Below, piece after piece: positions 18,417-43,598 of a DNA stretch of 64,000 bases; the stretch's first letter is position 1, and every line of letters starts with the position of its first letter. The position numbers and the translations under genes were made by a program. The notes under the pieces were generated by a model. The model was given only the letters and a program-made list of their open reading frames with translations. It was not told where the DNA came from and ran no database searches. Source of the DNA: an uncultured Candidatus Rokubacteria bacterium. GTDB taxonomy: Bacteria > Methylomirabilota > Methylomirabilia > Rokubacteriales > CSP1-6. The stretch covers positions 32,001 to 96,000 of the forward strand of contig CAVWWD010000007.1 in NCBI GenBank assembly GCA_963758635.1. The letters run 5' to 3'.

Positions 18417-18445
18417 AGTGTAGGAACCGCCCCACAACGTGTCAA
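18417..18445 (-). promoter_or_regulatory. sigma70 promoter of the thrC-like/LLM/Liv operon
   Basis: TTGACA-17bp-TACACT, 10 nt before the ATG. Confidence 0.7.
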
Positions 18446-18501
18446 CGCGCGCGCCGAGCGAGAGCGAGGGAACCCGCCTACGCGCCTGCTATCGTGAGCG
18501 C

Positions 18502-18786
18502 ATGCCTGCGATGGATCTGGCCATCGGTGTGACGAGTCTCCGGGCGCGGTTGAGCCACTACCTGCATGCGGTCTCCGCCGGCGCCACCGTCACGATCAGC
18601 CGCCATCGTCGGCCCATCGCAAGGCTCGTTCCGATCGTGCGATCCCCGGGCCTGGACGTACTCGATCTACTGGCGAAGCGCGGAGTGCTGCAGCACGGTA
18701 CTGGTAAGCCCGGCAAGGCCCGGAGGGTGAGGCTCCGGAAGGGCAGCCGCCTCGTTTCCGGTCTCGTGATCGAGGATCGTGGCTGA
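18502..18786 (+). CDS. Phd/YefM family antitoxin with no cognate toxin downstream
   Basis: IGVTSLRARLSHYLHAVSAGATVTISRHRRPIARLVP. Confidence 0.8.
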   Translation: MPAMDLAIGVTSLRARLSHYLHAVSAGATVTISRHRRPIARLVPIVRSPGLDVLDLLAKRGVLQHGTGKPGKARRVRLRKGSRLVSGLVIEDRG

Positions 18787-18812
18787 TCCTCGCAGGGCCC
18801 TCTTCTGCGGCG

Positions 18813-19040
18813 TCAGCGGTTGCGGTCTTCGCGAATGAGGCGCACGCCGCGCGATTTGTGCAGCGGCTGACGCGCGCGGATCTCCGCGGCACGAGCGGCG
18901 ATCTCGGCGCGGGTTGGCCGTGTCCCCTCGGTCAGGATGCGGCGCACCTCCTCCTCCACCGAGACGCCGTGCAGCTGGGCCTGGAGTCTCAGTCGCTCTG
19001 CCACCTCGTCGTCCAGTTCGTGCACGATGATCGTCGCCAT
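18813..19040 (-). CDS. FitA-like ribbon-helix-helix antitoxin (copy 2)
   Basis: MATIIVHELDDEVAERLRLQAQLHGVSVEEEVRRIL. Confidence 0.85.
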   Translation of the reverse strand: MATIIVHELDDEVAERLRLQAQLHGVSVEEEVRRILTEGTRPTRAEIAARAAEIRARQPLHKSRGVRLIREDRNR

Positions 19041-19049
19041 GACCGGTAG

Positions 19050-19517
19050 CTATCCTTTCCAGATCTTGATGCCTAGGCGATCGGCCGCGCGTCGAAGCCG
19101 GTCGTCTGCGGTGGCCAGGCGCGCTGACCCCCTGATGGCGAGCATCAGGTAGAGGCAGTCATAGACTGGATGGTCGAGGTCTGCGGCAAGACGCGCCGCG
19201 GGTCGAAGTAGCGGCGTTGATGGGGTCCAGGCAATGCCGAGCGCGAGCAGGTGGGTGATGGCGCGCTCGACGTTGGACAGATCCATCTCGCCGCGTCGCT
19301 GTCGCTTCCACCACGCGTTGGTAACTTCCACGGCCATCAGGTCGGGCGCAAGCAATGGTATCTCGCTGGTCAGGAGCTCCTCTGAGTGCCACGGATCGCG
19401 CTCGTTCGCGAACCAGTGGAACGCGATCGAGGCGTCGACCACCACGGGCGCGACGGACGCGTCGTAGGTCGCGTGCCGTTCGCGAGCGTGCCGGCGTACC
19501 ACCCGGGGTGACCTCAT
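19050..19517 (-). CDS. PIN-domain (VapC/FitB-like) toxin
   Basis: VVVDASIAFHW, APDLMAVEVTNA, VYDCLYLMLA, LATAD. Confidence 0.88.
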   Translation of the reverse strand: MRSPRVVRRHARERHATYDASVAPVVVDASIAFHWFANERDPWHSEELLTSEIPLLAPDLMAVEVTNAWWKRQRRGEMDLSNVERAITHLLALGIAWTPSTPLLRPAARLAADLDHPVYDCLYLMLAIRGSARLATADDRLRRAADRLGIKIWKG

Positions 19518-19741
19518 CGGTTTCGGTCTTCGCGGATCATGTCCACGGCGGTCGATTGCGTGAGAGGCTGCCGCGCACGGATCGCCGCTGCCTGCGCAGC
19601 AATCGCCGCGCGGGTCAACCGGGTGCCATCGGCCAGAACACGCCGCGCCTCTTCCTCCACCGAGACACCGTGCAGGCGCGCCTGAAGCCGGAGCCGCTCT
19701 GCCACCTCGTCGTCCAGATTGCGCACGATGATCGTAGCCAT
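19514..19741 (-). CDS. FitA-like ribbon-helix-helix antitoxin (copy 1)
   Basis: MATIIVRNLDDEVAERLRLQARLHGVSVEEEARRVL; stop overlaps the toxin start. Confidence 0.88.
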   Translation of the reverse strand: MATIIVRNLDDEVAERLRLQARLHGVSVEEEARRVLADGTRLTRAAIAAQAAAIRARQPLTQSTAVDMIREDRNR

Positions 19742-19745
19742 GGAA

Positions 19746-19775
19746 GATAGCATATAGCGCTATCGTTGATAGCGC
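19746..19775 (-). promoter_or_regulatory. Probable FitA-type operator overlapping the -10 (TATGCT)
   Basis: GATAGC/GCTATC boxes at 19746, 19759 and 19768; inverted repeat GCGCTATC-gtt-GATAGCGC. Confidence 0.55.
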
Positions 19776-19817
19776 AACACGATATCAGCCAGCCCTGATG
19801 ATGGTAAGCTGACCGGC

Positions 19818-22600
19818 ATGCCCATTCCGCTCGGCGCGCCGTTCCGTCCCGGTCTCGATCCGCTCCCCGACACGCAGCACGCGTGGGCCGTCGTGAAGGA
19901 CCAGTGGGGGCGGCCCGCGCACGCCGATCCGCGCGACGGGCTCCGGCAGATCGAGATACCGGTGCCCGAGATCGGCCCCAACGAGGCGCTCGGCTACGTG
20001 CTGCACGCCGGCCTCACGTACAACACGATCTTCGCCGCGCGCGGCGTGCCCATCTCCGTGTTCGACCTGCACGACCGCGACCTGCACGTGCCGGGCAGCG
20101 GGGCGGTGGTGCTGCTCGCCGCGATCGGGCGCGAGGTGGCGCGCGAGGGCCGGCTGCGCGTGGGCGAGCTCTACGTGCTCTACCCGGGCGTGTCGAACCT
20201 GCTCTCGCCGCGGGCCGGCGAGGATCCGATGCACGCCGACTTCAAGATCCAGGGTTACGAGACGCCCGACGGCTCCTTCTGCCAGTTCGTGCGGGGCCAG
20301 GCGCCGCAGCTCCTGGCGCACTCACGGCGGCTGACCCTCGCCGAGGGCTCGTCGTACATGCTCGACCTGGAGACGGTGTACAAGGCGCTCTACGACGTGG
20401 CGCAGCTCGAGACCGACGAGCGCGTGTTCGTGGAGGGCGCGGCGGGGGGCACCGGGATCTACGCGGTGGCGTGCGCCGCCCTCCGCGGCGCCCACGTGAC
20501 GGGCCTCGTCTCGACCGAGGAGAAGGGGCGGCTGGTCCTCTCGCGCGGCGGCCACACGTACGTCAACCGCAAGGCCGCGGACATGACGGGCGTGTTCACC
20601 CCGGTGCCGGCCGGCTCCGCTTCGCGCGCGGCGTGGAGCGCGGCGGGCGCCGCCTTCAAGGCCATGGTGCGTGAGCGGAACCAGGGGGCGCTCATGAACG
20701 TGGTGGTGTCCTCGGTCGGCCGCGACCTCTTCGGCCGCATGGTCGATCTGCTCGTGCCGGGCGGGCGCCTGGTGTTCTACGGCGCCACCACCGGCTACAC
20801 CCTGGCCTTCCTCGGCAAGCCCGGCGCCGCGCCGGCGCGGGAGATGCTGCGTCGCGCGCGTCTCAGGCCCAACGAGGGCGTGCTCGTCCACTACGGGCTC
20901 GGCGACGGGCTCGAGGACGAGGCGGGCGCCGAGGCGATCGAGGCCGCGCTGCGGGCGGGCGCGCGGGTCGTGGTGGCCGCGCGGCTGGACGCCCAGGCGA
21001 CGCACGTGCAGTCCACGCACCGCGTGCACGGCGTGGTGAGCCTCGAGACGCTCGACCGGGCCGGCGGCTTTCGCTGGCCCGAGGCCATGCCCGACTACGA
21101 CACCGATCGCGCGGGCTACCGCGAGTACCAGGACCTCACGCTCAAGCCGTTCGGCCAGGCGGTGGGCCGGCTCCTCGCCACGGCCGACAACCCCCGCGGC
21201 AACCCCGACGTGGTCGTCGAGCGGGCGGGCCGGGACACGCTCGGCGTCAGCACGTTCCTGGCGCGGCCGTTCACCGGCCGCGTGGTCTACGTCGAGGTGA
21301 CGCGCGACCGGCGCTTCTCGTTCTACGCGCCCAACGTGTGGATGCACGAGAAGCGCGTCCTGTTCCCGACGTTCTCGATCCTCGGCTCCCACCTGTCCAA
21401 CGCCCATCAGGCCGAGGAGGTCGTGCGGCTGATCGACGCGGGCGCGCTCGCCATCCATCCGCCCGTCGTGCGCGGCTGGGACGACCTCGCGGAGCAGCAT
21501 CAGCTCATGCACGAGAACCGCCACGCCGGCACCACCACCATCCGCGTGGGGGCCGGCCCCGCCCTCGACGGCGCGCGCACGCGCGCGCGAAGTCTACGAG
21601 GCGTGGGGCTCGCGCTTCGCCGACGGCCGCGACCGTCCGCCTGCGGCTGGATCCGGTGGCGCCGGGGCGGGAGGAGCGGGTCGCGCTCGTCACGATCGAC
21701 TCGCCTCCGGCCAACGCCATCGGCCTCACGGTGCTCGAAGAGCTCGAGCGGGTGGTCGAGACCCTGGAGAGCGACACGACGGTGCGCGCGGCGGTGCTCA
21801 CCGGCGGCGGCACGATGTTCGTGGCCGGCGCCGACATCCGCCAGCTGCGCGCCTTCGCGACGCCGGACGACGTCGAGGCCTTCACCAGCTCGCGTGCAGC
21901 GTCTCTTCACGCGCGTCGGTCGACTGCGGGCGCCCGTGATCGCCGCCGTGGACGGCTATGCGCTGGGCGGCGGCAACGAGCTCCAGATGGCCTGCGCGTA
22001 TCGCGTGGCAGGGGAGCGCGCGGAGCTTGGTCAGCCCGAGATCAACCTTCACGTGCTGCCCGGCTTCGGCGGCACCCAGATGCTGCCCCGGCTCGTGCTG
22101 CGCAGGAATGTGCGGTGAGCGGTCGGGCGGGCGAGACGGGCTGGTCGAGGCGCTCGCGATGCTCCTGGACGGGCGGCGTCGCACGGCATCGGCCGCGCTC
22201 GCCCTCGGGCTGGTCGACGAGGTGGCCCCGGCCGATGCCCTGTCACACGCCTTGTCAATCGCGCGCCGTGTCGCGCTGGGAGAGTTTCAGGGTACCCTGT
22301 GGTCGCCGCTGGCGGCCGGCGCGGAGATGGACACCGGGGCCGGGCGGGAGGGGTGGGAGGCGGCTCAGACTTACCCGCGCATCGGACGGATCCTGCGCCC
22401 ACCATGGCACCATCGACCGGCTGGCTCCAGCCGGGGCCACGCTGGAGGCGGTCCGGACTGGCTTGTTCGAGGGGGTCGGGGCTGGCCTCGCCCGGGAGGC
22501 TCGCCTCTTCGGCGCGATGGTGGCCTCCGCGGAGGGTAGGGAGGGGATCGACCGCTTCCTGTCCCGCCAGTCCTGGGCGCTACCCCTCCGCGAGGGCTGA
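19818..22600 (+). CDS. Enoyl-CoA reductase (MDR, Pcs/Ccr-like) fused to an enoyl-CoA hydratase; about 5 frameshifts in the 3' third
   Basis: [33 protein letters not shown]; then [36 protein letters not shown]. Confidence 0.78.
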
Positions 22601-22676
22601 CGGTCGTCGTCGGGGATCTTTACGATTCCTGGCCGGGAGCCGGGCTGATCAAGGGTAAGTAGTTGAAAAAGCGTCC

Positions 22677-22692
22677 TGGCATGCGTCGTGCT
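22677..22692 (+). promoter_or_regulatory. sigma54 (-24/-12) promoter with an upstream IHF-like site
   Basis: TGGCATGCGTCGTGCT (GG-N10-GC); TAAGTAGTTGAAA at about 22656-22668. Confidence 0.55.
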
Positions 22693-22785
22693 CTAGTGGG
22701 AAATGCCGCTGCACGAGGCCAGTATTCGTGTGATACTCACTAGCGGTCTATATCTCCGTGGTTTCGGTCTAGGCAAGGAGCCTGT

Positions 22786-23049: not shown

Positions 23050-23346
23050 ATGGACACCCCTCCGAGCGCCGTATGGCAGGTCTCGGAGGGGTGTCAGTTC
23101 GTCTGGCAACTGTGGGATGATGAATACGTCGTGTTCGACCACGGCTCCGGCAGCACGCACTTCCTCGATCTGATCGCAGGCGAGGCCCTTCAGACCCTCG
23201 TCCAGTCCCCTTCGGACGTTCCCGGGCTCACCTACCGTATGGCGTCACGGATGGGTATCGAGTCCGACTCCGCCCTCGAGCAACGCATCCGAGACACGCT
23301 GGACCGCTTTCGCGAGGCCGGGCTGGTCGAGCCGTCTCTGACGTGA
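23050..23346 (+). CDS. PqqD-family peptide chaperone/RRE (HPr-rel-A system type)
   Basis: WDDEYVVFDHGSGSTHFLDLIA...LDRFREAGLVE. Confidence 0.85.
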   Translation: MDTPPSAVWQVSEGCQFVWQLWDDEYVVFDHGSGSTHFLDLIAGEALQTLVQSPSDVPGLTYRMASRMGIESDSALEQRIRDTLDRFREAGLVEPSLT

Positions 23347-24279
23347 CGGCCGGCGAGATCTCCGCCGCCGAGTTCACCGAGCGGCTGGCGCACCCCGGGA
23401 TCACCCTCGACACCGGGGCCTTCTCGATCCAGCTTCAGGCCTCCGCCATCGATGGGCTCGGCCAGGATCTCCACTTCCTGTACGCCGACTGCCCGATCGT
23501 CCCCGATGGCGAGATCGTGGATTTCCGTGTTGCCCTCCGGCGGCCGTCGGGCCTTCGCCGGTGGTGGCGGCCCCAGGTCCGGATCCTCTTCGACGGGGCG
23601 AGCCTGGTCGAGCCGATGCCGCTGGCCGTGGCGCTCCCGGCGCTCGAGTGGGGCCTGAACTGGGCCATCGCCGCCCATGCCCACCACCACGTGATGATCC
23701 ACGCCGCCGTGCTCGAGCGGGACGGCCGCGCGGTGGTGCTGCCCGGCACTCCGGGGGCGGGCAAGAGCACGCTCTGCGCCGGGGCTCGCCCACCGGGGCT
23801 GGCGGCTCCTCTCCGACGAGTTCGCGCTGCTGCGCCCGGCCGACGGTCTTCTCGTGCCCTGGCCCCGGCCGATCAGCCTCAAGAACGTCTCGATCGACGT
23901 CATCAGGGCGTTCGCCCCCGACGCCCGCCTGGGGCGGAGCGTCCCCGACACCTCCAAGGGCACCGTCGCGCTTCTCCGGCCGCCGCCCGAGAGCCGCCGG
24001 CGCATGCGGGAGACCGCCGAGCCGGCGTGGCTCGTGTTCCCCGGCTATCGTGCGGGTGAGCCCGCCCGGCTCACCGCGTTGCCGCGCGCGCGCGCGTTCC
24101 ACCGTCTCGCGGAGATGTCGTTCAACTACGCCATGCTCGGCGCGCCTGGGTTCGAGACGTTGCGCCGCATGGTCGGCGCCTGCGACACCTTCGAGTTCAC
24201 CTACGGAGAGCTCAAGGAAGCGGTGGAGCTCTTCGGGGCGCTGGCGCCGCCGCGCTCGACGCGTGTCGAGGGAGCCTAG
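23343..24279 (+). CDS. HprK-related kinase A; one frameshift near 23785
   Basis: LEWGLNWAI, HAAVLERDG, PGTPGAGKSTLCA; then GWRLLSDEF, PRPISLKN, PDTSKGTV, SFNY. Confidence 0.85.
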
Positions 24280-25339
24280 CGCGCCGCTGCTCTTCCAGGC
24301 GCTCGGTGACCCCGGGCGTCTGCCCCGCCTGTCCGTCCCGGAGTGGGACCGTCTCCTCCGCGAGGCTCGCCGCGCCAATGCCCTGGCGCGCATCGAGGCC
24401 CTGGTCGCGGACCGCGGCGCGAGTGACCGCATCCCCGAGCGGGCGCGCCAGGCGCTCGAAGGGGCCCGCCTCGTCGTGGATCAGCAACACCGCCTCGTGC
24501 GCTGGGAGGTGACGCGGATCCGACGCGCGCTGGATGGGCTCGACGTGCGGCTCGTGCTGCTCAAGGGCGCGGCCTACGTCCACGCCGGCCTGCCGCCCGC
24601 CCGCGGCCGCACGTTCAACGATGTGGACGTCATGGTGCCGGAGGATCGGCTGCCCCTGGTGGAGGCCCGCCTCCGCGCCGCGGGCTGGACCACGCTGACC
24701 CTGGACCCGTACGACGACCGCTACTACCGCGCGTGGTCCCACGAGCTGCCGCCGATGCACCATCCGGCGCGGGGGATCGTGGTGGACGTGCACCACAACA
24801 TCCTGCCGCCGGTGGGCCGCGTGAACGCGGACGCGCGCCCGCTCCTGGAGGCGGCCGCGACGATCGCGCCCGGCCTCGCCGTGCTGGCGCCCGCGGACAT
24901 GGTGCTTCACACCGCGGTGCACCTGTTCCAGTCCGGCGAGCTCCATTCCGCGGTGCGGGATCTCACCGACCTGGACGCGCTGCTGCGCCACTTCGGCCGC
25001 GACCCGGGCTTCCCGGACGCCGTGGTGGCTCGCGGGCGCGCGCTCGGCCTGGGCCGGCCGCTCTACTACTCGCTGCGGCTCGCGCGGCGGCTCCTGGGCA
25101 CGCCCCTTCCGGCGGGGATCGAGGAGCGGGCGGGAGCGCCGTCGGCCCCGGTGCGCGCGGTCATGGACGGTCTGGTGGCGCGGGCCCTCGTGCCGCGGCT
25201 GCACGGCGAGACTCCGCGGGGCGCGGGACTGTCGCGGTGGCTCCTCTACACCCGATACCACTGGCAGCGCATGCCGGCGTGGATGCTGGCACGGCACCTC
25301 ATGCACAAGGCCATGCCGCGCCCGCGGCCGGTCAAGTGA
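24263..25339 (+). CDS. Nucleotidyltransferase family protein (NTP_transf_5-like)
   Basis: VLLKGAAY, GRTFNDVDVMVP, HELPPMHHP, VDVHHNI. Confidence 0.85.
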   Translation: MSREPSAPLLFQALGDPGRLPRLSVPEWDRLLREARRANALARIEALVADRGASDRIPERARQALEGARLVVDQQHRLVRWEVTRIRRALDGLDVRLVLLKGAAYVHAGLPPARGRTFNDVDVMVPEDRLPLVEARLRAAGWTTLTLDPYDDRYYRAWSHELPPMHHPARGIVVDVHHNILPPVGRVNADARPLLEAAATIAPGLAVLAPADMVLHTAVHLFQSGELHSAVRDLTDLDALLRHFGRDPGFPDAVVARGRALGLGRPLYYSLRLARRLLGTPLPAGIEERAGAPSAPVRAVMDGLVARALVPRLHGETPRGAGLSRWLLYTRYHWQRMPAWMLARHLMHKAMPRPRPVK

Positions 25340-34058: not shown

Positions 34059-36231
34059 GGGGTCCCTCCTGCCGAGGATACTCCGCGCGTCGCGCCGGGC
34101 GCGAGCCGGAGCACGGCCAGGGATCGCGCATCGAGGGGATAGGCGCCGCCGGGCTCGAAGGCCGGCGCCTCGCCGACGGCCCAGTCGCGCGTGTCGAGGA
34201 CCAGGTGCCAGCGCGCGCCTCGGCGGCCGGCGGGCAGCAGGAACGGCACGGGCGCGGGCCCCGTGTTCAGGAGCACGAGGAAGGAGTCGCCAGTGATGGG
34301 CTCGCCGGCCTCGTCCACGTCGGGGATGGCGTCGCCGGCCAGGCGGAGGCCGAGACAGCGCGTGTCCGCGTCGTGCCACTCCTCCGCCGTGAGCTCCCCG
34401 CCGCCGGGCGCGAGCCACGACGAGGTCCTTGAGCTCGGCGCCCCCGACGTTCTTTCCGCGGAAGAAGCTCCGCCGATGGAACACCGGATGGGCGAGCCGG
34501 AGCGCGATCAGCCGGCGCACGTAGTCGAGGCGCCCGGCCGCGGCGGGGGAGAGCGGCCACGGGAACCAGGAGAGCTCGCCGTCCTGGCAGTACGCGTTGT
34601 TGTTCCCGCGCTGGGTGCGGCCGACCTCGTCGCCCGCGGTCAGCATCGGCGTGCCCTGTGACAGGAGGAGCGTGGCGAGGAAGTTGCGCGCCTGCCGGTC
34701 GCGGAGGGCCAGCACGTCGGGATCGTCGGTGGGGCCCTCCACGCCGCCGTTCCACGAGAGGTTGTGATCGGAGCCGTCGCGGTTGTCCTCGCCGTTGGCC
34801 TCGTTGCGCTTCGTCTCGTAGCTGACCAGGTCGGCGAGCGTGAAGCCGTCGTGGCAGGTGACGAAGTTCACGCTGGCGTGGGGCCGGCGGCCGCTCCACT
34901 CGTAGAGGTCGCTCGACCCGGTGAGCCGGTAGCCGAGCTCGGCGGCCTGGCCGGGGTCGCCCCGCCACACCCGACGGATCGTGTCGCGGTAGCGGCCGTT
35001 CCACTCCGCCCATCCCGCGGGGAAGTTGCCGACCTGGTAGCCGGCCTCGCCCAGGTCCCACGGCTCGGCGATGAGCTTCACCCGCGAGATGACGGGGTCC
35101 TGCCGGATCGAGGTGAAGAACGCCGACAGCCGGTCCACCCCGTGCGCGCCGCGGGCGAGGGCGGCCGCGAGGTCGAAGCGGAAGCCGTCCACGTGCATCT
35201 CCTCGATCCAGTAGCGCAGGCTGTCCATGACGAGCTGGAGCGCGGCGGGGTGGCGGGTGTCGAGCGTGTTGCCGCAGCCGGTGTAGTCCAGGTACTCGCG
35301 GCGGTTCTCGGGCCGGAGGCGGTAGTAGGAGGCGTTGTCGATGCCACGCAAGGACAGCGTGGGGCCGCGATGGGTGCTCTCCGCGGTGTGGTTGTAGACC
35401 ACGTCGAGGAGCACCTCGAGGCCCGCGCGGTGCAGCTCGCGCACCATGGCCTTGAACTCCGTCGACCTGGGCGCCCGGCGCTCCCGGCGCGGCCAGGCGC
35501 GCGTCCGGCGCGAAGTAGCCGATGGAGTTGTAGCCCCAGTAGTTGGCGAGCCCGCGGGCCACGAGGGGCCGCTCGCTCACGCTCGCGTGCACGGGCATCA
35601 GCTCGACCGCGCTCACGCCGAGCCGTGTGAGGTGCTCGATGGCGGAAGGCGACGCGAGGCCGGCGAACGTGCCGCGCCGGGCCGGCGCCACGTCGGGATG
35701 ACGCGCCGTGAAGCCCTTCACGTGCGCCTCGTAGATCACCGTGCGGTGCCACGGCGTGCGCGGGGGGCGGTCGCCCTGCCAGGCGAACGCGGGGTCGACC
35801 ACGACGCTCCGGAGCGTGTAGGGCGCGCTGTCGCGCGCGTCCGGCACGTCGCCGTCGGGATCGTCCGGGCGATAGCCGCAGAGCGCGTCGTGCCAGCGGA
35901 TCTCCCCGTCGATGGCGCGCGCGTACGGATCGAGGAGGAGCTTGGCGGGGTTGAAGCGATGTCCCTCGGCGGGCGCGTAGCGACCCTGGACGCGATAGCC
36001 GTAGAGGAGGCCGGGGCCCGCGCCCTCCAGGTACACGTGCCACACCTGGTCGGTCCGCTCGCGGATGCGCAGCCGGCCGCGCTCGCGACCGCCGGGCCCC
36101 GGCTCGAACAGGCACAGGTCCACGGCCGTCGCGTTCTCGCTCCAGAGCGCGAAGTTGACGCCGGCGCCGTCCCACGTCGCGCCGAGCGGGGAGGGAGAGC
36201 CCGGGCGCGTCCGGAAGGGCGGGCGGCTCAC
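34055..36231 (-). CDS. glgX: Glycogen debranching enzyme; frameshifts near 35460 and 34420
   Basis: [55 protein letters not shown]. Confidence 0.9.
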
Positions 36232-41483: not shown

Positions 41484-42841
41484 CTAGAAGCTGCGGATGA
41501 GGCGCTCGACCCGCTCGTCGTGGCTCTGGAACGGATCCTTGCAGAGGATGGTCTCGCGCTCCGGGTCGTTGAGCTTCAGGTAGACCCAGTCCACGCGGTA
41601 GTCCTTCCCCTTCAGGTTGGCCTGGCGGATGAACTCGCCGCGCAGGCGCGCCCGGGTGGTCTGGGGCGGCGCGTGCTTGGCCCGCTCGATGGCCTCGTCG
41701 GTGGTGACGCGGTCGACCATGCCGCGGCCCACGAGCCTGAAGTAGAGGCCGCGGTCCGGCCGGATGTCGTGGTACTGCAGGTCGATCAGCGAGACCTTGG
41801 GGTCCCGCCACGACAGCCGGTTCTTGGTCATGAAGTTCTCGATCAGCTCCTTCTTGATGACCCAGTCGACCTCGCGGGACAGCTGCATGGGGTCCTGGGT
41901 GAGCTGCTCGATCACGTACGTCCACTTGGCGAGCACGTCCTTGGTGACGGGATCGGCGTCGATGGTCTGGACGTAGCGCGTGGCGTGCTCGAGGTACTCC
42001 GTCTGGAGCTCGAGCGCGGACATCGACGCGGCCGTCCTTGAGCCGCACCGTCTCGCGGAGCGTCGGGTCGTGGCTGATGTCCCGGATGGCCTGCACCGGC
42101 GACTGGAGGCTGTAGTCGCGGTCGAAGTGGCCGTCCTCGATCATGTCGAGGATCAGCGCGGTGGTGCCCACCTTGAGGTAGGTGGCCATCTCGGACATGT
42201 TCGAGTCGCCCACGATCACGTGCAGCCGGCGGTAGCGCTCGGCGTCGGCGTGGGGCTCGTCGCGCGTGTTGATGATCGACCGCGACGACGTGGTGGCGCC
42301 CGAGATCTCCTGGCAGATGTGCTGCGCCCGCTGGGACAGGCAGTAGTGGAAGCCCCGCGGCGTCTGCAGCACCTTGCCCGCGCCCGCGAAGATCTGCCGC
42401 GTCACGAAGAAGGGGATGAGCCCCTCGGCGAGACGCTGGAACGAGAACGTCACGGCTGACCAGGTAGTTCTCGTGGCAGCCGTAGGAGTTCCCCGCGGAG
42501 TCGGTGTTGTTCTTGAAGAGGAGGATGTTGCCGGAGATGCCGTCCTCGCGCAGGCGCTTCTCCGCCTGATGGAGGAGGTCCTCGACGATACGCTCGCCCG
42601 CCTTGTCGTGCGTGACGAGCTCGGTGACGTCGTCGCACTCGGGCGTGGCGTACTCGGGGTGGAAGCCCGTGTCGAGATAGAGCCGGGCGCCGTTCTCCAG
42701 GAAGACGTTCGCGTTCCGGGCGCCGGGGATGACCTTCTCGAAGAGGTAGCGGGCGACGTTGTCCGGCGAGAGGCGCCGCTGGCCGTTCAGCGTGCACGTC
42801 AGGCCGTACTCGTTCTCCATGCCGAAGATGCGCCGCTTCAT
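41484..42841 (-). CDS. pafA: Pup--protein ligase; frameshifts near 42450 and 42025
   Basis: [78 protein letters not shown]. Confidence 0.9.
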
Positions 42842-42904
42842 GTGGGCCTCAGGGTAGCAGGGGCTCGGACCCTCCGCAAGAATTCCTGCGTGTGGGAGCG
42901 GGCG

Positions 42905-43598
42905 TTACGTGGTCGCGGGGAGGAGCTGGTGCAGCACCTCGGACGGGATCCGGCGGAACTTCCGCCGCTCCTTCGTCCGATCGAGCACCGCCACCTCGAG
43001 GTCGCGCTCGGTGAGCGTCTTGTTCTGCGTGACCATGAGGGCCCGGACGCCCAGGTGCAGCGCGGCCTCGAGGTCGAGGCTGTCCTGGAAGTTGTCCTTC
43101 AGGTAGCGCCGGATCTCGTCGGACTGGCCGCCCATGGCCGCGTAGTTCTTCTCGTCCTCGATGGTTCCGTCGTAGAGGATGTGGTAGATCTCGTTCTTCG
43201 CGCCGTTGTCGACGCCGACCTCGACCACCAGCACCTCCACCTCGAAGGGCTTGATGTCCTGGGTGAAGATGTTCCCGAGGCCCTGGGAGTAGGCGTTGGC
43301 GAGGGCCTTGGCGCGTCACGTCGCCCCGGCTGTAGGAGTAGCCACGGAGGTCGGCGTGCCGGACCCCGGCCACCCGCAGGTTCTCGAACTCGTTGTACTT
43401 GCCCACGCCGGCGAACGCGATGCGGTCGTAGATCTCCGAGATCTTGTGGAGCAGGGTCGAGGGGTTCTCGGCCACCAGGAGCACGCCGTCGCGGTACTCG
43501 ATGGCCACGATGGCCTTGCCGCGGGAGATGCCCTTGCGGGCATACTCCGCCTTGTCCTTCATCATCTGCTCGGGCGACACGTAGTAGGGCAGCGGCAT
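42905..43598 (-). CDS. prcA: 20S proteasome alpha subunit; frameshift near 43315
   Basis: [56 protein letters not shown]. Confidence 0.92.

Follow-up and report, generated by a model that had tools for sequence, protein, structure and literature searches.

Propionyl-CoA synthase (Pcs) is the textbook example of a reaction chamber built from one protein, inside which a toxic intermediate is kept hidden. The canonical enzyme takes up free 3-hydroxypropionate through its own ligase, its domains are arranged in the order ligase–dehydratase–reductase (L-D-R), and its reductase is a template for converting reductases into CO2-fixing enzymes. The same two reactions, dehydration and reduction, are carried out in Thermoproteota by two unfused proteins with no built-in ligase, 3-hydroxypropionyl-CoA dehydratase (5zai) and acrylyl-CoA reductase (NF041172). 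Here we describe a gene from an uncultured Candidatus Rokubacteria bacterium in which a Pcs-type reductase is followed by a Pcs-type dehydratase and the ligase domain is missing. The gene lies at positions 19818–22600 on the forward strand of a stretch of 64,000 nucleotides (nt) from contig CAVWWD010000007.1 (assembly GCA_963758635.1), hereafter the window, and comprises about 925 codons and a stop after five extra bases are discounted. We show that it is a member of a large, widespread, unnamed, single-copy clade of reductase–dehydratase (R-D) proteins of about 930 amino acids within one Rokubacteria family, and that its permuted, ligase-less architecture is a new architectural variant of the Pcs type. 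Literature searches found, in the papers that they covered, no description of an R-D variant of Pcs, or of the ligase–reductase–dehydratase (L-R-D) variant that accompanies it.

As assembled, the gene is spread over three overlapping open reading frames (ORFs; Table 1) in a region with a G+C content of about 74%. The N-terminal part carries the MDR nucleotide-binding domains ADH_zinc_N and ADH_zinc_N_2 according to Pfam, followed by ECH_1 (PF00378) in two non-overlapping pieces in two different frames. These score 60.7 and 49.2 bits, passing the gathering cut-off of 27 for the crotonase superfamily; in P0003, an intact homolog of 926 amino acids (aa), ECH_1 scores 125.1 bits. Pfam found no AMP-binding domain in the gene. 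A first-pass annotation, made from the letters of the DNA, had described a reductase region followed by a crotonase with both catalytic Glu residues, and this description is borne out: the motifs that it quoted ([50 protein letters not shown], QAPQLL, TYNT, GYET and GSH) all fall inside a stop-free translation of 589 residues, and both GGGNE and QPE are present in the crotonase part. The catalytic residues, including the two crotonase Glu, are invariant in 18/18 aligned family members.

The likeness to Pcs is found in both domains. Our reference was PDB 6EQO, which we take to be the Pcs of Erythrobacter sp. NAP1 (database label ‘Acetyl-coenzyme A synthetase’, 1,850 aa). The reductase part (query residues 3–583) aligns with residues 1234–1827 of 6EQO in one stretch (E = 2.8e-149), whereas the best Ccr (crotonyl-CoA carboxylase/reductase) structure, 4gi2, aligns in two stretches that cover residues 11–263 and 459–575 only (E = 2.6e-45); the stretch of about 195 residues between them is therefore common to Pcs and not to Ccr. 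The C-terminal 336 residues of P0003 align over their whole length with residues 894–1210 of 6EQO (317 residues, E = 7.2e-51), whereas ordinary crotonases mostly reach no further than the first 160–230 or so residues of this dehydratase part. The Metallosphaera-type dehydratase 5zai matches the same part with E = 1.3e-32, and the acrylyl-CoA reductase model NF041172 matches the window protein weakly (E = 2.4e-10). Among NCBIfam models, the best for the N-terminal part is TIGR01751 (crotonyl-CoA carboxylase/reductase), at 208.8 bits and under its cut-off of 378.55.

Taken feature by feature, the window protein has the Pcs-type dehydratase with its C-terminal extension and crotonase Glu pair, the Pcs-type MDR reductase with its long stretch, and the same Asn, Tyr-Glu and His set as 6EQO. 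It differs in lacking the N-terminal ligase, in carrying the dehydratase after the reductase rather than before it, and in having Asn-Thr where canonical Pcs has Asn-Asp. Together with the Pfam order, the two 6EQO matches confirm that this is a Pcs homolog with the reductase ahead of the dehydratase and no ligase. An AlphaFold2 model of P0003 built from an 18-sequence alignment was too poor for domain geometry to be read (mean predicted local distance difference test score 62, predicted template modelling score 0.45, catalytic lobe below 50).

This arrangement is shared by many proteins. A search for relatives of similar length returned 354 sequences at E ≤ 1e-10 among 7,987 scored candidates. 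The best 120 of these 354 are nearly all 920–960 aa long and 74–92% identical, with the MDR plus ECH Pfam set; source databases name the near-length relatives ‘enoyl-CoA hydratase-related protein’ or give them a KEGG-style trifunctional Pcs name (JGI). A second search, for longer proteins, returned two kinds, one of about 1,590–1,600 aa at 70–77% identity and one of 1,790–1,856 aa at 46–51%, which Pfam identifies as L-R-D and canonical L-D-R, respectively. The domain order is MDR–ECH in P0003, AMP-binding–MDR–ECH in P0129 and P0123, and AMP-binding–ECH–MDR in P0181. Sorted in this way, 278 relatives comprise 153 R-D, 103 L-D-R and 19 L-R-D proteins, with two that have the reductase only and one ligase–reductase protein. 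The homologs are single fused genes, not pairs of separate ones. ESM Atlas gave one 72-member cluster with ECH and ADH_zinc_N and nothing more. Closest in architecture are the fused L-R-D proteins of Rokubacteria (about 1,595 aa; for example P0129, named ‘AMP-binding protein’ at NCBI), which share the order and the Asn-Thr pair of the window protein and are 70–77% identical to it over the R-D module, but carry an N-terminal ligase of the acetyl-CoA-synthetase type that the window gene and genome lack.

A FastTree phylogeny of 116 reductase domains, with the R-D (45/150 rows) and L-D-R (45/103 rows) sets sampled at random and with six Rokubacteria Ccr-like proteins as the root, bears out the grouping with Pcs. 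Canonical Pcs forms one clade (support 100) and the R-D and L-R-D proteins together form its sister (support 99), with the reservation that the outgroup attaches where long branches meet, which is a warning on the rooting. The reductase of the window protein is only 46–51% identical to canonical Pcs. Within the sister clade R-D and L-R-D forms are interleaved, and well-supported branches require the ligase to have been gained or lost two or more times; the window gene sits in a subclade of R-D forms only.

The clade is concentrated in one bacterial family. A sample of the phylum contained the gene in 41/201 genomes, every one of them in the family of the window (40/125 besides its own genome), and it was found in 0/75 genomes from the 11 other families sampled. 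Among 41 loci at 67–74% identity in a collection of species genomes, 33 belong to records with Rokubacteria, Rokuibacteriota or Methylomirabilota in the title, and the remaining 8 are soil bins of metagenome-assembled genomes (MAGs) under other names. Near-identical R-D or L-R-D genes of the Rokubacteria type occur in soil MAG bins (L028, L033, L035, L036, L039, L045 and L059) labelled Myxococcales, Verrucomicrobiia, Acidoferrum, Nitrosocosmicus (an archaeon), Binatia and Deltaproteobacteria, which looks like mis-binning more than gene transfer. Canonical Pcs was found in the same collection in Gemmatimonadota, Gammaproteobacteria and Chlorobi-type MAGs.

Because the window copy is broken, we asked whether its breaks belong to the organism or to the assembly. 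A frameshift-aware alignment of P0003, whose reductase part is 92% identical, to positions 19818–22600 gave 826/926 identical residues, no internal stops and exactly five +1 insertions. The indels noted in the first pass are thus real features of this assembly. We then placed contigs from four public soil-metagenome runs (X1–X4; X1 and X2 come from the same study, X4 from a second) on positions 19700–22700. The only indels reported were single bases left out, at most 4 bases from the sites predicted by the alignment, and contigs without the extra base were found for all five (Table 1). The protein P0004, which comes from another assembly and is 98% identical, stays in frame across the first four sites and has a different break of its own. 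Three housekeeping genes farther along the window, for isoamylase, Pup ligase and a proteasome subunit, are matched by intact orthologs in two or three frames, and single-base indel errors seem frequent across the whole assembly (12 contigs, completeness 87%). Given the contigs that lack each extra base and the same breakage in these three genes, the breaks are most likely assembly errors, and there is a high probability that the organism carries an intact gene of about 925 codons. Some of the contig evidence counts against this: at 21579, the X2 contig that lacks the base accounts for 3.04 of a depth of 19.5 at that place; at 21630/21631, X3 contigs with a depth of 61.6 cover the place without the omission, but they match only in part, have a loose end at 21617 and are not interpretable; and the window's own sample may be among the runs.

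The distribution of the breaks invites another explanation, in which the crotonase half would be a pseudogene in decay and the reductase half alone would still function in this organism. The five frameshifts are confined to roughly the last 1,000 nt, with none in the first 1,767 nt, and the break in P0004 also lies within the crotonase part. It sits at a different place, however, and the five breaks are all single-base insertions, with neither in-frame stops nor accumulated substitutions; the broken part is about as similar to P0003 as the remainder of the gene. As each extra base is also missing from independent contigs and the housekeeping genes of the window are broken in the same manner, decay of the crotonase half is very improbable.

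If the gene is intact, its likely role can be read from Pcs. The C-terminal crotonase-type domain would remove water from 3-hydroxypropionyl-CoA or a similar short 3-hydroxyacyl-CoA, and the N-terminal Pcs-type reductase would reduce the resulting enoyl-CoA with NADPH; the reactive enoyl-CoA is probably handed between the domains, by a channelling like that of Pcs. We take the main product to be propionyl-CoA, formed by plain reduction, the chief competing reading being reductive carboxylation. The architecture and the pairing of a dehydratase with a reductase are, by themselves, very likely. For the full statement, a dehydratase–reductase that would act on a short 3-hydroxyacyl-CoA with plain reduction as its main reaction, we estimate a probability of about 0.5. 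Several points weigh against it. Substrate and product are inferred by homology to Pcs alone; canonical Pcs ligates its own substrate whereas no cognate ligase was found for the window enzyme; no neighbouring gene tied to propionate or 3-hydroxypropionate metabolism was found; and the Asn-Thr pair resembles that of a true carboxylase rather than that of Pcs.

The ligase was sought both at the related loci and in the genomes. At eight loci (L007, L010, L027, L028, L033, L038, L040 and L059) an L-R-D ligase part lies directly upstream of, and is fused to, the reductase. The eight ligase parts are 76–84% identical, and Pfam reads the ligase of the fused relatives as ACAS_N plus AMP-binding, of the acetyl-CoA-synthetase type. 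No such part was found at the remaining R-D loci. The window's genome, which is 87% complete, yielded no cognate ligase, its best matches to the ligase part being 42% and 40% identical and located elsewhere. Four other genomes with the R-D form only (88–100% completeness) gave matches of 41–43% at best, and the same 41–43% paralogs are also present in G015, a genome that has the fused gene. Since no cognate ligase was found, the substrate would have to arrive as a CoA ester.

Genomic context sets the clade apart from canonical Pcs as well. At two loci, in a gammaproteobacterial MAG (L073:12823–16542) and a Gemmatimonas MAG (L078:12874–16578), canonical pcs (1,825 aa) is directly followed by a double-SDR gene of 1,234–1,239 aa. 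NCBIfam names only generic SDR for this gene, which we take from its architecture to be like malonyl-CoA reductase (Mcr); the pair is probably a two-gene 3-hydroxypropionate module. The window gene, by contrast, has no Mcr-like gene beside it, and a search of 61 family genomes found no full-length match to the double-SDR gene in any of them (61/61), which puts the R-D clade outside the Mcr–Pcs module of the 3-hydroxypropionate bi-cycle. Comparison of the gene neighbourhood across 42 related loci revealed two conserved synteny types, whose genes have unrelated housekeeping or transport functions (Meth_synt_2, metallo-beta-lactamase, NTP_transf_5, radical SAM, ABC transporters, glutamate dehydrogenase, isoamylase, Pup ligase and proteasome), and the window shares with its relatives the downstream glutamate dehydrogenase, isoamylase, Pup ligase and proteasome genes. 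No linked carboxylase, mutase, epimerase or CoA-transferase gene was present in the neighbourhoods examined. The neighbourhood, conserved only as chromosomal synteny among relatives, was set aside as a functional clue. Two metatranscriptome runs contain 0.26 and 0.18 of the sampled words of the stretch, and no claim of expression is based on them.

With neither a ligase nor an Mcr-like gene, the context in which Pcs receives 3-hydroxypropionate is missing here. This absence, and the low identity of the reductase to canonical Pcs, would also fit a protein of the same fold with another job, acting on longer or branched 3-hydroxyacyl-CoA and enoyl-CoA such as crotonyl-CoA from fatty-acid or polyhydroxyalkanoate turnover. 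The fused L-R-D relatives nonetheless keep a ligase of the acetyl-CoA-synthetase type, which fits a short acid. We regard such a substrate as unlikely and continue to favour a short 3-hydroxyacyl-CoA.

What the reductase does with the enoyl-CoA is the harder question. The first-pass annotation had proposed that the enzyme may be a natural carboxylase. Such an enzyme would trap the enolate with CO2 and, with NADPH, convert 3-hydroxypropionyl-CoA or acrylyl-CoA to (2S)-methylmalonyl-CoA without ATP, or alternatively crotonyl-CoA to ethylmalonyl-CoA; the clade would then be the natural counterpart of the engineered carboxylating Pcs. The proposal turns on the CO2 pocket of Ccr/ECR. According to passages of PMC6628652, the Ccr of K. 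setae (KsCcr) binds CO2 through N81, F170, E171 and H365, T82 and S119 orient N81, and the F170Y variant retains 100% carboxylation, so that a Tyr is tolerated. The window protein has the MDR fold and matches all four pocket residues (Asn69, Tyr147, Glu148 and His525) and the second-shell pair (Thr70 and Ser94), but differs from Ccr/ECR in falling below the TIGR01751 cut-off, in its extra stretch of about 195 residues and in its fusion to a dehydratase. The four pocket residues are present in 65/65 sampled R-D and L-R-D members, as is Ser94, which we equate with S119 from the spacing in the 3hzz alignment and the numbering in the passages of PMC6628652.

The pocket motifs (TYNT, GYET and GSH) are present but do not discriminate: canonical Pcs has the same residues (Asn, Tyr and His in 45/45, Glu in 42/45) and is essentially a reductase, so the pocket does not predict carboxylation. 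The residue after the pocket Asn, to which the first pass had pointed, does separate the clades, being Thr in 64/65 R-D and L-R-D members, the window protein included, and Asp in 45/45 canonical Pcs. In the solved Ccr-family structures that we aligned it is Gly, Asn or Ser, never Asp. The Asp corresponds to Asp1302, reportedly the Pcs residue that was mutated to awaken carboxylation. Position 1753, reportedly a second engineered site, corresponds here to Met509 and was rejected as a carboxylase marker, because Met is found in 65/65 R-D and L-R-D members and also in 24/45 canonical Pcs.

Published work on engineered enzymes points both ways. Passages of two reviews (PMC8252502 and PMC10176493) credit Pcs with a weak carboxylation side activity that is raised by a ‘single point mutant’, and an engineered Pcs reached 97% carboxylation (PMC10266731). 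In KsCcr, the T82D variant still carboxylates almost fully, yet more than 50-fold slower, in the passages of PMC6628652, and the position therefore does not act as a simple switch. The residue argument is thus correct at the level of the sequence and clade-wide; as a sign of carboxylation it is suggestive and not decisive.

Wider comparisons did not strengthen the case. The two clades are set apart by 52 positions; the Ccr outgroup shares the R-D residue at 13 of these and the Pcs residue at 9, which is neutral and gives no overall carboxylase-like shift. Nor is there an epimerase, a mutase or another methylmalonyl-CoA gene beside the gene. Within the same family, Ccr is present in 2/8 genomes with R-D versus 9/17 without it; these genomes are related, and the complementarity is not convincing, so R-D does not clearly replace Ccr. 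Ccr-like proteins of Rokubacteria (L095–L098, L014 and L017) exceed the TIGR01751 cut-off at 527–550 bits, and the six examined have Gln (5/6) or Arg (1/6) at the position of KsCcr Glu171 and Asn after the pocket Asn, which suggests that they may not be typical carboxylases. On balance, natural reductive carboxylation by the R-D enzyme is possible but doubtful, and plain reduction remains our preferred reading.

Table 1 Features of the R-D gene and its surroundings, in window positions
Feature	Positions	Strand	Remarks
ORF, 766 aa	19818–22118	+	ORF listing; overlaps the other two frames
ORF, 420 aa	21338–22600	+	ORF listing; overlapping frame
ORF, 193 aa	21958–22539	+	ORF listing; overlapping frame
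Pcs-type MDR enoyl-CoA reductase domain	19818–21584	+	589 residues, single open frame
Pcs-type crotonase (3-hydroxyacyl-CoA dehydratase) with C-terminal helical extension	21636–22597	+	Spread over three frames here
Asn69-Thr70 codons	20022–20027	+	Pcs Asn1301-Asp1302 and KsCcr Asn81-Thr82 by alignment
Tyr147-Glu148 codons	20256–20261	+	KsCcr Phe170-Glu171 by alignment
His525 codon	21390–21392	+	KsCcr His365 and Pcs position 1769 by alignment
Crotonase catalytic Glu of GGGNE	21978–21980	+	Sequence read-out
Crotonase catalytic Glu of QPE	22038–22040	+	Sequence read-out
Extra base 1	21579–21582	+	Alignment about 21582; one X2 contig lacks one base at 21579
Extra base 2	21630–21631	+	Alignment about 21631; one X2 and one X4 contig lack it at 21630/21631
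Extra base 3	21888–21890	+	Alignment about 21890; one X1 and one X4 contig lack it at 21888
Extra base 4	22107	+	Alignment about 22107; one X1 and one X4 contig lack it
Extra base 5	22395–22399	+	Alignment about 22399; one X1 contig lacks it at 22395
Phd/YefM-like antitoxin match	18439–18786	+	Below Pfam cut-off; directly upstream cluster
FitA-like RHH antitoxin	18813–19040	−	Upstream cluster
PIN-domain toxin	19050–19517	−	Upstream toxin–antitoxin cluster (18439–19753)
FitA-like RHH antitoxin	19514–19753	−	Upstream cluster
PqqD-family match, ORF, NTP_transf_5 nucleotidyltransferase	23050–25339		PqqD match weak, just below Pfam cut-off; ORF frame-broken, with no Pfam match
Isoamylase	34103–36231		Intact orthologs match in two or three frames
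Pup ligase	About 41487–42900		Intact orthologs match in two or three frames
Proteasome subunit	42908–43598		Intact orthologs match in two or three frames

The immediate surroundings of the gene differ from those in relatives in two respects. The toxin–antitoxin cluster directly upstream of the gene is absent from the same position in syntenic relatives. Downstream lies the group with the PqqD-family match and the nucleotidyltransferase; in relatives, a set of PqqD, an unnamed protein, a radical-SAM-SPASM protein and NTP_transf_5 stands upstream of the R-D gene instead.

The R-D and L-R-D proteins form a large natural clade in which the two domains of Pcs have been rearranged, the ligase has often been dropped and the Asp beside the CO2-anchoring Asn is absent. 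The clade is a natural test of how far the reaction chamber tolerates permutation and the loss of a wall. As its members are named ‘propionyl-CoA synthase’ in genomes where no Mcr-like gene was found, metagenome surveys that score them under this name may report the 3-hydroxypropionate bi-cycle too often in soil Rokubacteria. They are also candidates for ATP-free carboxylation of acrylyl-CoA. If the enzyme proved to be a carboxylase, it would make methylmalonyl-CoA straight from 3-hydroxypropionyl-CoA, and the fused form from free 3-hydroxypropionate, with no need for an ATP-dependent propionyl-CoA carboxylase. It would then count as a natural enzyme of CO2 fixation, so far unrecognised and abundant in soils, and evolution would already have arrived at the change that was engineered into Pcs.

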